Assembly (NCBI GenBank): GCA_945787715.1
Contig: CALZJE010000002.1
Location: 12,417-76,416 of the forward strand
Direction of reading: 5' to 3'
DNA length: 64,000 nucleotides
From: an uncultured Ectothiorhodospiraceae bacterium
Lineage (GTDB): Bacteria > Pseudomonadota > Gammaproteobacteria > S012-40
Part shown: positions 23,410 to 52,640 of the stretch, in pieces
How the letters are laid out: each line of letters begins with the position of its first letter
Position numbering within the stretch: the first letter of the stretch is position 1
Notes under the pieces: model-generated
Told to the model about the DNA's origin: nothing
Databases searched by the model: none
What the model saw: the letters and a program-made list of their open reading frames with translations, nothing else
Translations under genes and position numbers: made by a program

Positions 23410-23611
23410 CTAGTGTATAGGCTAATGGCAAGCATTTATTAATAAAATAGAGTAAATAAAAATAAGAAAAATATTCATTAGCAGCAATATTTAATCTGAG
23501 TATTCACTGGTTTGAAAGTTGACTCATGTTGAATCAATATAGTTTGAAAAAATTTTTTGGGGGGGAAGGTTGACGGGAGTTTCTGATAAGAAATTTAAGA
23601 AGGTTAGTCAT

Positions 23612-23653
23612 AAAAAAGGTGTATTAAACAGTTTGTTTAATACACCTTTTTTT
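23612..23653. terminator. Bidirectional intrinsic terminator (tilS on +, 37-codon gene on -)
   Basis: 12-bp perfect stem GGTGTATTAAAC/GTTTAATACACC (23618-23629 / 23635-23646), flanked by A6 upstream and T7 downstream. Confidence 0.8.
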
Positions 23654-23666
23654 ATATCATGTATGG

Positions 23667-23780
23667 CTAACCGTGGAACGCAAGACTCCAACCTAAAACA
23701 GCTAAACCAATTGTAGTCGCCGCTAAGAAAATAACGTATGCAGCATCGTCAGCCATAACATTAGTTCTTTTTTTTGACAT
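23667..23780 (-). CDS. Unannotated 37-aa single-pass membrane peptide (MSKKRTNVMADDAAYVIFLAATTIGLAVLGWSLAFHG)
   Basis: Read by hand, as it is below the ORF-track size cut-off. SD GGGAGA lies about 7 nt upstream of the ATG (cat 23778-23780). One hydrophobic helix follows a basic N-terminus. The terminator starts 14 nt after the stop. Confidence 0.55.
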   Translation of the reverse strand: MSKKRTNVMADDAAYVIFLAATTIGLAVLGWSLAFHG

Positions 23781-24045: not shown

Positions 24046-24207
24046 ATGAATAATGAATCTAAAAAAGATGATGTGAAAGAAATTAATTTTAGTGGCGCTG
24101 CAATTGTTGATGAAAATGGAAATGAAATAGCCATTACCGAAGAAATGCTTCAGAAAGCGTTCGAAAAATTCATAAATTTATCGATGCTACCTTCCTCACT
24201 CAGATAA
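24046..24207 (+). CDS. Unannotated 53-aa acidic protein (MNNESKKDDVKEINFSGAAIVDENGNEIAITEEMLQKAFEKFINLSMLPSSLR)
   Basis: Read by hand. Weak SD (AAGG, 8 nt upstream). The central G-x-x-I-x-D-x-x-G-x-E-I-x-I-T-E-E-M stretch reminds me of a family of short conserved gamma-proteobacterial proteins. That is from memory and unverified. Confidence 0.4.
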   Translation: MNNESKKDDVKEINFSGAAIVDENGNEIAITEEMLQKAFEKFINLSMLPSSLR

Positions 24208-24334
24208 TATAAGTTTAGTGAATTTAAGCTAGCCCGAAAATTTTATGTTGTGCAAGTGTATACTCAAAGGGCAGCGGAAATACCTAATATTCATAAATTA
24301 TCCGGACGAAAACAAATTGGGATTTTCTTGAGGT

Positions 24335-24370
24335 AAAAAAAAGAGCGCTCAACTTATTACGGAGCGCTCT
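24335..24370 (-). terminator. Strong intrinsic terminator, functional on the minus strand
   Basis: Stem AGAGCGCTC/GAGCGCTCT (24342-24350 / 24362-24370), 11-nt loop. The A8 run at 24335-24342 becomes a U8 tail on the minus strand. The + strand has only CTCTT after the stem. Confidence 0.75.
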
Positions 24371-24510
24371 CTTAAGGGAGGGGGGTCTATTGCACTTTAG
24401 TCAGCGCGGCGAACTAAGGGAGGGAGTGTTCGCCACACTTATAAAGTGTAAAGTCTCTAATCAACACAAGTATCTAAGGGAGGGGGTGATTCCTGTGTCT
24501 TTCAAGATGG
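24335..24510 (-). ncRNA. Candidate sRNA with three CCCUCCCUUA motifs (family not recognised)
   Basis: TAAGGGAGGG occurs on + at 24373-24382, 24415-24424 and 24475-24484. Two copies lie in hairpin loops (24408-24434 and 24464-24498) and one is single-stranded next to the terminator. There is no plausible ORF. The 5' end is only guessed from a CATAAT -10 at 24515-24520. Confidence 0.45.
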
Positions 24511-24552
24511 ACCTATTATGTCTCATATTTATCATTAATAAAAATAAAATAA

Positions 24553-24596
24553 AAGTATAAGAACGATAGATAAACGTAAATCTATTATTTATACTT
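24553..24596. promoter_or_regulatory. Nested dyad, candidate LysR-type operator
   Basis: AAGTATAA (24553-24560)...ATAGAT (24566-24571)-N8-ATCTAT (24580-24585)...TTATACTT (24589-24596). It lies between the LTTR start codon (24630) and the putative divergent sRNA promoter. Confidence 0.4.
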
Positions 24597-24629: not shown

Positions 24630-25586
24630 ATGGCTAAAATGAAAAATGCCACTTTTAGGCAATTACAAGTCTTTGAATCAATAGCAAGAAATCGCAGTTT
24701 TACTGCTGCAGCTAACGAGCTTCACCTCACCCAGCCTACAATATCTGTACAGATGAAAAAGCTTTCAGAAACAGTGGGAATACCACTTTATGAGGTAATG
24801 GGGAAAAAAGTTTTTATTACTGATATTGGAAATCAACTTTTGGAAACCTGTTATGGTGTGTTTAATGAGCTGGATAATTTCGAAATGTCCGTCGCCAATG
24901 CTCGTGGTGTAAAAGAAGGGGCACTTAAAGTGAGCGGTGTGACGACTGTTGAATATTTTGGCCCTAGAATTATTGGGGATTTTTGCCGTAAATATCCGGG
25001 TATAAAAGTCTCTTTAGAGGTTAAAAATAGGCAGAAGATTATTGATCGTATAAGAAAAAATCGTGATGATTTATATATCTGTGGACCTGTTCCATCTGAT
25101 CTTGAAGTGGAAGAAACGTTATTCTTAGATAATCCACTCGTTATTCTCGCATCACCCTTACACCCGCTTGTTGGAAAGAAAAATATTTCAATTGAAGAGT
25201 TGGCTGGAGAACAGTTTTTAAAAAGAGAAGAAGGTTGTGGAACCTATCTAATACTCGATAAAATTATCGGAGAAAAAGGAATCCATTTTCAAAGTAGCAT
25301 GGCGCTGGGTAGTAATGAAGCAATCAAACAAGGAGTGATTAGTGGATTAGGGATCTCTCTATTATCTCTCTATGCATTGACGCATGAGTTAGAGACCAAG
25401 CAGCTGGCGATTTTGGATGTTGAAGGATTTCCTTTTCATGACCAATGGCATATTGCTTACCCAAAGGGTAAGAAGCTCTCAATTGTCGCTCAGGCTTTTT
25501 ATGATTATCTGTTAGATGAAGGGCGTAAACTAACATCAGATCATTTATTTGACGTTCCCGGCTATAAAATAGATTATGAATTATAG
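24630..25586 (+). CDS. LysR-family transcriptional regulator (CbbR-like subfamily by sequence feel)
   Basis: N-terminal wHTH FRQLQVFESIARNRSFTAAANELHLTQPTISVQMKKLSE, 318 aa, and a C-terminal co-inducer domain with SNEAIKQGVISGLGISLLS. Confidence 0.85.
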   Translation: MAKMKNATFRQLQVFESIARNRSFTAAANELHLTQPTISVQMKKLSETVGIPLYEVMGKKVFITDIGNQLLETCYGVFNELDNFEMSVANARGVKEGALKVSGVTTVEYFGPRIIGDFCRKYPGIKVSLEVKNRQKIIDRIRKNRDDLYICGPVPSDLEVEETLFLDNPLVILASPLHPLVGKKNISIEELAGEQFLKREEGCGTYLILDKIIGEKGIHFQSSMALGSNEAIKQGVISGLGISLLSLYALTHELETKQLAILDVEGFPFHDQWHIAYPKGKKLSIVAQAFYDYLLDEGRKLTSDHLFDVPGYKIDYEL

Positions 25587-25818: not shown

Positions 25819-26487
25819 ATGATTGAAATAATACCCAATTGGCATCCACTATTTGTACACTTTACCGTTGCTTTGCTATCCTTGGCCGTTTTGTTTTTTA
25901 TTATTGAAAAACCTATCCATGAAACCATAATGGGAGACAACTTCCTAGTTTTTGCCAGGTATTGTTTATGGTTAGGTGTGGCATTGAGTTTCATCACTGT
26001 TTTAGCAGGATGGAGTGCCTATAACTCTGTTGATCATGATAATCTTTCTCACTTGGCTATGACCGATCATCGCAATTGGGCGCTAAGTACTTTTGCTATT
26101 TTTGTTGTTGCTGCAATTTGGTTAGTTGCATCTTCAAAATTAAAAGAAGGAGCATCAATACTGTTCTTATTGGTTTTAATTATCGGGGCAGGTCTCTTGG
26201 GTGTCACAGGTTTCAAAGGTGCCGAGCTGGTATATAAATATGGGCTTGGTGTAGAGTCCCTACCGAGTAAAAGTGACCACAATTCCTCAGATGGTCACTC
26301 GCACGACCACAATGGCTCTCATGATAGTGAGCATTCATCATTGCCAATGGATGAAGATATGTCTATGGATTCAATGACTATGGATTCAATGACTATGGAG
26401 CAGGTTCAAGAGAATGTGCCTGTCATTGAGGAGATGCCCATAGAGCAAGAAGAAGATGGTATTACACGTCAGAAACTTGCTCCGTGA
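25819..26487 (+). CDS. DUF2231-like polytopic membrane protein with His-rich and Met-rich C-terminal tail
   Basis: N-terminal WHPLFVHFTVALL motif, 4 predicted TM helices, and tail SDHNSSDGHSHDHNGSHDSEHSS...MDEDMSMDSMTMDSMTME. ATG 25819 follows GAGGGA. Confidence 0.7.
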   Translation: MIEIIPNWHPLFVHFTVALLSLAVLFFIIEKPIHETIMGDNFLVFARYCLWLGVALSFITVLAGWSAYNSVDHDNLSHLAMTDHRNWALSTFAIFVVAAIWLVASSKLKEGASILFLLVLIIGAGLLGVTGFKGAELVYKYGLGVESLPSKSDHNSSDGHSHDHNGSHDSEHSSLPMDEDMSMDSMTMDSMTMEQVQENVPVIEEMPIEQEEDGITRQKLAP

Positions 26488-51848: not shown

Positions 51849-51896
51849 TGCGAATTTATTGTGCCGAAGTAGATGGAAATCGGAGAGGGAGGTTTT

Positions 51897-52640
51897 ATGA
51901 GCTTGGAAAATGAAGTTGCCTTGGTTACTGGTGCAACAAGAGGAATTGGTAAAGCTATCGCGTTAGCGCTCGGTGAAATGGGTGCAACCGTGATAGGTAC
52001 TGCCACCAGCGAAAATGGTGCAGGGAAAATTTCCGATTATCTCGCTTCTGCAAGTGTCAAGGGTGCCGGTAAGGTGCTTAATGTCACAGATAGCGCTGCG
52101 ATCGAAGGTTTAATAAAAGAGATTGGTAAAGAGTTTTCTGCACCAACTATTCTTGTCAATAATGCAGGAATTACACGCGACAATTTATTAATGCGCATGA
52201 AAGATGATGAATGGGATGATATTATTAATACCAACCTCACTTCAGTCTTTCGACTTTCAAAAGCATGCTTGCGTGGAATGATGAAAGCTAAACGTGGTCG
52301 TATTGTTAGTATTGCATCTGTTGTTGGTGCAAGTGGTAATGCCGGACAAGCCAACTATGCAGCTGCCAAAGCAGGTATCATGGGTTTTTCTAAATCGCTG
52401 GCAAGAGAAGTTGCATCGAGAAATATTACGGTTAATGTTGTTGCGCCGGGATTTATTGATACCGATATGACCAAAGACTTACCAGCTGAGAACAAAGAAG
52501 CTTTATTGTCTTCTATCCCATTAAATCGTTTAGGCCGACCAGAAGATATTGCTTCAGCTGTTGCATTTTTGTGCTCCCCTAATGGTGGATATGTGACTGG
52601 AGAAACAATTCATGTGAATGGTGGGATGTACATGAATTAA
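51897..52640 (+). CDS. fabG: 3-oxoacyl-ACP reductase
   Basis: SDR motifs TGATRGIG and YAAAKAG. ATG 51897 follows GGAGAGGGAGG. Confidence 0.95.
   Translation: MSLENEVALVTGATRGIGKAIALALGEMGATVIGTATSENGAGKISDYLASASVKGAGKVLNVTDSAAIEGLIKEIGKEFSAPTILVNNAGITRDNLLMRMKDDEWDDIINTNLTSVFRLSKACLRGMMKAKRGRIVSIASVVGASGNAGQANYAAAKAGIMGFSKSLAREVASRNITVNVVAPGFIDTDMTKDLPAENKEALLSSIPLNRLGRPEDIASAVAFLCSPNGGYVTGETIHVNGGMYMN

Follow-up and report, generated by a model that had tools for sequence, protein, structure and literature searches.

A probable small RNA gene with repeated anti-Shine-Dalgarno-like motifs, divergent from a CbbR-like regulator in an uncultured gammaproteobacterium

Introduction

Several bacterial small RNAs (sRNAs) have exposed C-rich sequences. 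RsaE/RoxS from Firmicutes and sX13 from Xanthomonas have C-rich loops whose presumed partners are G-rich ribosome-binding regions. Also, in oxyR/oxyS and gcvA/gcvB, the gene for the sRNA is divergent from a LysR-type regulator that activates it. The cuckoo RNAs, which have been found only in Alphaproteobacteria, consist of 2–4 adjacent hairpins with identical CCUCCUCCC loops and variable stems (PMC4615179). NfeR1 (αr14) has three identical anti-Shine-Dalgarno (aSD) motifs and strictly requires the LysR-type regulator LsrB, which binds at -72 to -57 (PMC10746234). As for CbbR, its binding within the cbbR-cbbL intergenic region was shown experimentally (PMC2942843).

Here, we describe what looks like a real, undescribed sRNA gene beside a transcription factor that resembles the regulator of RuBisCO. 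We found it in a 64-kb stretch of DNA ("the window") from an uncultured gammaproteobacterium. The nearest functional analogs are the cuckoo/αr14 RNAs (NfeR1 from Sinorhizobium, CcsR1-4 / RSs0680 from Rhodobacter, and ar14 or RF02344 in Rfam). By this analogy, the new sRNA would work in the same way, but it is not a member of their family. Like the new sRNA, they are modular, with identical, ultraconserved, unpaired C-rich aSD motifs and variable stems, and their gene copies can cluster, as do the tandem units of the wider variant that we describe below. In contrast, the cuckoo motif is CCUCCUCCC and lies in hairpin loops, whereas the motif of the new sRNA is CCCUCCCUU(A), with two copies in loops and one copy that is single-stranded. 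The new sRNA scores just 17.9 bits against Rfam's ar14 model (the threshold is 58.8 bits), its host is a gammaproteobacterium instead of an alphaproteobacterium, and the regulator is a CbbR-like protein that is encoded next door instead of LsrB. Because membership in the cuckoo family fails on motif, model score, and host class, we consider this sRNA family to be new: it is absent from Rfam 15 and lies outside the cuckoo family, and its design is already known.

The other systems are less similar. RsaE/RoxS and sX13 have exposed C-rich loops as well, but they have no sequence or covariance-model similarity to the new sRNA, they have other regulators, and their motifs are CCCC instead of CCCUCCCUU. 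The oxyR/oxyS and gcvA/gcvB loci have the same divergent layout, but the new sRNA is not homologous to OxyS or GcvB, and its regulator is from the CbbR branch.

Results and Discussion

Three copies of a motif, unpaired in the predicted RNA

The original prediction was that the 10-mer TAAGGGAGGG occurs three times on the plus strand of the gap upstream of the regulator. We re-found exact copies at all three positions (Table 1) and no further copy in the window. The trio is confined to 112 nt. In dinucleotide-preserving shuffles, just 0.04 exact copies are expected, and none of 100 shuffles of the window had three or more copies. In the window, whose G+C content is 40%, such G-rich hexamers are scarce: there are ~30 hits at about 20 sites, and the 112-nt stretch accounts for 11 of the hits. 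Read as RNA from the minus strand, the motif is CCCUCCCUUA, with three identical copies in the predicted sRNA. The remaining stems that had been described are all present at the locus, as are the A8 run and the GAGCGCTC inverted repeat.

Table 1. Coordinates of the regulator gene, promoter elements, and RNA elements within the window.
Feature	Coordinates	Strand	Basis or remark
Divergent CbbR-like LysR-type regulator gene	24630..25586	+	Best NCBIfam match is CbbR
Dyad box ATAGAT-N8-ATCTAT, putative regulator recognition site	24566..24585		Proximal half-site at -63 to -58
TTATTAAT element over weak -35 (about -33 to -26)	24534..24541	-	Likely regulator activation site
-10 hexamer CATAAT of predicted sRNA promoter	24515..24520	-	Conserved position in relatives
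Predicted sRNA transcript, ~174 nt	24335..24508	-	5' end predicted; 3' end is the U8 tail
Hairpin 1, with motif copy 1 (24475-24484) in loop	24463..24499	-	Minimum-energy fold; extra 5' module
Closing stem P1: CACUUUA (24448..24442) with UAAAGUG (24399..24393)	24393..24448	-	Encloses hairpin 2
Hairpin 2, with motif copy 2 (24415-24424) in 13-nt loop; stem of 12 bp	24403..24439	-	Minimum-energy fold
Motif copy 3, CCCUCCCUUA, single-stranded, immediately 5' of terminator	24373..24382	-	Minimum-energy fold
Rho-independent terminator AAGAGAGCGCUC / GAGCGCUCUUUU, then U8	24335..24373	-	Fold and covariation in relatives

To predict the transcript, we set its 5' end 7 nt past the conserved -10 hexamer. 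The minus strand from ~24508 to 24335 has a folding energy of -57.3 kcal/mol, versus -30.4 ± 3.5 in shuffles (z = -7.75). In the minimum-energy fold, all three copies of CCCUCCCUUA are unpaired: two are in hairpin loops and one is in a single-stranded stretch. This arrangement largely agrees with what had been proposed. Copy 1 is within the loop (ACCCCCUCCCUUA) of a stem-closed hairpin whose stem, GACACAGG/CUUGUGUU, is longer than expected (it is lengthened by AUC/GAU). Copy 2 is indeed in a 13-nt loop that is closed by GGCGAAC/GUUCGCC, and this core extends to 12 bp if G.U pairs are included. Copy 3 is unpaired, as claimed, just 5' of a terminator with a U-run on the minus strand only; the terminator stem (24373..24339) has 12 bp, and the U8 runs down to 24335. 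Such a U8 tail fits an Hfq-binding module. One element did not survive. A small hairpin at 24435-24449 had been proposed, but it is not in the minimum-energy structure: instead, CACUUUA pairs with UAAAGUG to form P1, which matches the closing stem of all close relatives, so we dropped the small hairpin.

The RNA comprises one conserved module (a closing stem, an inner hairpin, a single-stranded motif, and a terminator) plus an extra 5' hairpin, which is missing from the type-B and type-C relatives. Because there is a direct repeat between 24395-24428 and 24455-24488 (71% identity with a spacing of 60 nt), the extra hairpin is consistent with an added 5' module that arose by internal duplication.

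The motif had also been equated with the 3' tail of 16S rRNA. Across the clade, only CCCUCCCUU is shared. The more extended likeness of copy 1 (GGAAUCAC...) does not generalize, as it is present only in the window and in its closest relative, L019.

Homologous units in close relatives

Homologs of the adjacent LysR-type regulator are abundant in metagenomes. Some 25 loci from metagenomes or MAGs have a homologous unit that is upstream of the orthologous LysR-type regulator and divergent from it. If the regulator is at least 68% identical and there is enough upstream DNA, then the opposite strand always bears an sRNA-like unit. Two other loci, L020 (whose regulator is 88% identical) and L014, end just upstream of the regulator gene.

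The loci with such units are L019, L021, L022, L029, L182, L183, L185, L187, L188, L189, and L190. In all, 12 close loci have a unit opposite the orthologous regulator. Among the relatives, the stems have compensatory changes and the motifs remain unpaired, as would be expected if the original prediction were correct. Most of the close units have a dyad box (ATAGAT-N4-ATCTAT), which is followed by a conserved AT-rich stretch and then by CATAAT, GATACT, or TATAAT. Each RNA is ~100–120 nt long and combines a closing stem and an inner hairpin with a C-rich motif that is single-stranded (the architecture of L190 is less regular). In most of them, CCCUCCCUU lies directly ahead of the terminator (AGAGYRC...GYRCUCU and U6-9); this motif is degenerate in L022 and L029 (CCCUUCUUU / CCCUUCCUU). 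Among the relatives, the number and spacing of the motif copies vary, and the unpaired context, the helices, and the promoter are maintained.

We trained a covariance model (R1) on the units from six relatives. R1 recovers all of the other close units, and its match to the window (26.3 bits, E ~0.002) covers the full length of the model, at minus-strand positions 24334-24445. Therefore, the 3' two-thirds of the window's RNA corresponds to the whole RNA of the relatives.

The structure is supported by compensatory changes. In an alignment of 13 sequences, which was fitted to R1 and so favors the structure, 93.9% of cells were paired, as compared to 80.2% in shuffles and at most 60.6% in slid controls. 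Both sides changed in 14 of the 25 pairs, and the observed values were reached by none of 500 shuffles. In independent runs with MAFFT and RNAalifold, compensated pairs were still seen in P1 and in the terminator. The equivalents of P1 have a different sequence in every close relative, with compensatory changes, and three pairs of the terminator stem covary (across 11–13 homologs). In hairpin 2 of L019, a U-to-C change converts a G.U pair to G-C.

These comparisons also indicate which strand is transcribed. Several pairs in the stems are of the G.U type if read from the minus strand; from the plus strand, they would be A.C. Similarly, the terminator of L019 has a change from G-C to U.G that is tolerated on the minus strand only. 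We assigned the RNA to the minus strand because of the covarying terminator, these G.U pairs, and the conserved -10 hexamer.

We also scanned GTDB genomes for a terminator-plus-motif pattern, and this identified one further member, L191. The other four matches, which were from Firmicutes and Bradyrhizobium, were due to chance. In L191 (1038-1834 of a GTDB MAG), the sRNA unit, the box, and the promoter are intact, and the adjacent regulator gene is missing. Two ORFs that resemble ISL3-type transposases are near this sRNA unit.

The regulator and its putative operator

A LysR-type regulator had been noted opposite the sRNA, and this was borne out in the relatives, where the unit is syntenic with the orthologous regulator. 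We can also specify that the regulator is CbbR-like. It matches NCBIfam's CbbR model with 222 bits, which is below the 450-bit cut-off, so it does not qualify as an equivalog. When we clustered the regulators, the 32 that are linked to the sRNA formed a single cluster, apart from 141 other relatives (cbbL-linked or otherwise). The regulator is from a sister clade of CbbR. In 71 relatives with at most 53% identity, the RuBisCO large-subunit gene cbbL is divergent from the regulator.

The predicted promoters are conserved. CATAAT, GATACT, or TATAAT is found at the same position in the 12 close loci, and CATAMT is found in 14 units of the wider variant. The -35 of the window's promoter is poor (TTTTAT). 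The dyad box is at about -77 to -58 in the window, and the conserved form of the box lies at about -73 to -58; the half-sites are separated by N8 in the window versus N4 in most relatives. ATAGAT-N4-ATCTAT(CG) lies equally far from the -10 hexamer in the relatives and in the cbbL promoters. The composite pattern TCTAT-N24-TYDTTDAT is present in 17 of 24 sRNA-type promoters (the window also fits) and in 50 of 68 cbbL-type promoters, and in under 1% of shuffles. Wherever it is present in either type, its length is exactly 38 nt. With the proximal half-site at -63 to -58 and the AT-rich element at -33 to -26, the window's promoter has the classical layout of a recognition site plus an activation site.

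Like the sRNA promoter, the cbbR-cbbLS loci of chemoautotrophs have the dyad box and, at exactly the same spacing, an AT-rich element that covers the -35. In contrast, their divergent product is RuBisCO instead of a non-coding RNA, and the regulators cluster separately. A literature search for an sRNA linked to CbbR did not find any. Apart from the regulator, no neighboring gene is conserved across the sRNA family.

A wider variant in more distant relatives

Relatives whose regulators are 52–61% identical have a variant of the unit at the corresponding position and on the corresponding strand, with the same promoter. These sequences are from MAGs that are labeled as Chromatiaceae, Thiotrichaceae, or Gammaproteobacteria. 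The variant's terminator is a long hairpin (GCGCAYAUGGG...CCCAUGYGCGC) with a C-rich apical loop, such as CCCUCCCCCUCCCC, and there is also a 5' hairpin. The unit is often duplicated in tandem, and each of the two copies then has a separate box and promoter. Compensatory changes were seen in 6 of the 11 pairs of the variant's terminator. Because a crude terminator finder missed these long hairpins, we used a regular expression for them, which had no matches at other loci or on the regulator's strand.

R1 did not match the wider variant significantly (E > 1). The link between the close units and the wider variant rests on synteny, promoter, and motif. If the regulator is at least 55% identical, then all 22 distinct loci have C-rich hexamers on the divergent strand (2–20 of them) and none on the regulator's strand. 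Below 55% identity, 84 of 126 distinct loci have no C-rich hexamers and just five have three or more; one of these five is a recognizable unit.

Proposed function and alternative explanations

The element has several features that would be expected of an sRNA gene. For a promoter and terminator of its own, we found the conserved -10 hexamer, the covarying terminator with U8, and flanking genes that are convergent or divergent. It also appears to be non-coding (see below), and it has a conserved structure with compensatory changes.

With moderate confidence, we propose that the element encodes a regulator-activated, trans-acting anti-Shine-Dalgarno sRNA of ~174 nt on the minus strand. Transcription would begin at an activator-dependent sigma-70 promoter (with CATAAT as the -10 and a poor -35). 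The divergently encoded CbbR-like regulator would bind the operator (the dyad box and the AT-rich element), much as canonical CbbR controls cbbL, and transcription would stop at the Rho-independent terminator with its U8 tail. The three exposed CCCUCCCUUA motifs might then pair with the 5' regions of unlinked mRNAs, at Shine-Dalgarno-like G-rich sequences (GGGAGG). This pairing would occlude binding by the 30S subunit and repress translation, and three redundant seeds would give the sRNA the capacity for multiple targets. By analogy, the exposed C-rich motifs probably block the ribosome-binding sites of target mRNAs. We read the motifs as anti-Shine-Dalgarno because of this analogy with RNAs of the same anatomy; the reading also fits the rarity of G-rich sites in this DNA.

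Within the window, the only gene with a GGGAGG-type ribosome-binding site is fabG (GGAGAGGGAGGUUUUAUG at 51886-51899, plus strand), which is a possible but unsupported target candidate. When we compared relatives, we did not find a conserved G-rich ribosome-binding site for the regulator gene or for the DUF2231 gene.

If the RNA is real and is controlled by the regulator, then its C-rich motifs could instead be a sponge or decoy that titrates an RNA-binding protein or a G-rich regulatory RNA. Titrating RNAs typically have multiple copies of an exposed motif per molecule as well as tandem copies of the gene, and we did not find a target mRNA nearby, either in the 64-kb window or among the linked genes of the relatives. 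However, we know of no bacterial protein with specificity for CCCUCCC. Also, the well-studied RNAs with similar anatomy (cuckoo/αr14, RsaE/RoxS, and sX13) pair with G-rich ribosome-binding sites (PMC4615179, PMC10746234). Overall, a sponge seems unlikely, and we prefer the anti-Shine-Dalgarno sRNA.

The motifs might also act as DNA, either as protein-binding sites or as the remnant of a repeat, beside an ordinary terminator for the neighboring genes. In our triple-motif pattern scan of GTDB genomes, such repeats were indeed found: all of the matches (L001-L012) were tandem repeats from other phyla that are unrelated and not homologous. But repeats of this kind would not explain why the motifs' unpaired context, the compensated helices, and the promoter are maintained even as the number and spacing of the motifs vary. 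Nor would the terminator make sense for the neighbors, as it serves the minus strand only, and the flanking genes either converge on the element or differ between loci. We consider a DNA-level explanation to be very improbable.

Another kind of sponge would require that the plus strand be the functional one. Its loops read UAAGGGAGGGAGU, which contains GGA, and it also folds better than shuffles (z = -3.78), so it could in principle be a CsrA/RsmA-type sponge that displays GGA motifs in hairpin loops. In CsrB, RsmY, and RsmZ, however, the GGA motifs and the terminator are on the transcribed strand. Here, the strand with GGA lacks a terminator, because the T-run is on the minus strand only, and its stems have A.C mismatches where the minus strand has G.U pairs. 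The conserved -10 hexamer and the operator indicate the minus strand as well. Furthermore, there was no match to a Csr/Rsm family from Rfam in the window or in 16 related loci, and the plus strand of the wider variant has long G-runs instead of A(N)GGA sites. It is hard to credit a CsrA sponge given this evidence.

Finally, the only ORF over the element (24390-24560 on the plus strand, 56 aa) has a strong GGGAGG site upstream in the window, but single-base indels within the G-runs of L019, whose regulator is 95% identical, break this ORF and leave stops in every frame, and there is no ORF in common among the units of the other relatives, so the chance that the element encodes a small protein seems negligible.

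The original prediction also left the element without a named family, and our search of Rfam 15 agrees. At the gathering threshold, no family matched the element in the window or in 16 related loci. In a permissive scan, the only hit was the sub-threshold ar14 match mentioned above (E = 1, 24399-24503 on the minus strand). The sole match in the window at the gathering threshold is elsewhere: t44 RNA, a gammaproteobacterial rpsB leader, at 2477-2566 on the plus strand (74.4 bits).

Implications

These results add a well-supported sRNA family in poorly studied uncultured Gammaproteobacteria. They also suggest that the combination of several identical anti-Shine-Dalgarno motifs on variable stems with a LysR-type regulator arose outside of the Alphaproteobacteria, by convergence. 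Because the operator geometry is shared with cbbL promoters, there is a testable hypothesis, namely that a CbbR-type sensor is linked to translational control. The ~25 homologs can be used for comparative prediction of targets.

As for the host, its AccA protein is at most 79% identical to that of any named organism, and the closest is from the sulfur oxidizer Sulfurivermis fontis. For both the regulator and AccA, the nearest relatives come from gammaproteobacterial MAGs and from Sulfurivermis. We speculate, quite tentatively, that a branch of the CbbR family swapped RuBisCO for an anti-Shine-Dalgarno sRNA. A metabolite sensor of the type used for CO2 fixation might then drive a post-transcriptional arm, often with tandem copies, that silences GGGAGG-led mRNAs according to carbon or redox status in uncultured and probably sulfur-oxidizing Gammaproteobacteria.

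Neighboring genes and other repeats

Downstream of the regulator, at 25819-26487 on the plus strand, is a gene for a DUF2231 membrane protein; this linkage is found only in the close clade. Metal binding is suggested by the many His, Asp, and Met residues in the protein's C-terminal tail (SDGHSHDHNGSHDSEH...MDSMTMDSMTM).

On the other side of the element, after tilS, a long perfect AT-rich hairpin lies at 23600-23673 (AAAAAGGTGTATTAAACA...TGTTTAATACACCTTTTTTT). With A/T runs on both sides, it resembles a bidirectional terminator, and Rfam gave only spurious weak matches there. A 53-aa ORF at 24046-24207 on the plus strand matches NCBIfam's model for small proteins of the PA1571 family, with 43 bits (the cut-off is 35). 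Small ORFs that are similar also lie after tilS in L019, L021, L182, L187, L188, and L190. In P0124, which we identified as a relative by AccA, the locus does not have the regulator-sRNA module after tilS, and it did not provide an intermediate homolog.

In L019, a segment at 2476-2665, between the PA1571-like ORF and the sRNA terminator, is bounded by a perfect 13-nt inverted repeat (ACTTGCCTCTAAA / TTTAGAGGCAAGT). It has no counterpart in the shorter spacer of the window and is possibly a miniature mobile element. In L029, several copies of a ~45-nt repeat (GGTACCAAAAGTAGGCGC...GAGC...GGAAGC) lie downstream of the terminator of the sRNA, at ~1020-1290.

The unrelated repeats in L001-L012 are tandem arrays of 33–50-nt units with CCCTCCCTTA, and several of them share CCCTCCCTTACGGTCGGGC. 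Examples include L005 3601-3710, L009 5895-6073, and L011 700-1764. These arrays are found in Acidobacteriota, Planctomycetota, Chloroflexota, Verrucomicrobiota, Bacteroidota, and Metamycoplasmataceae.
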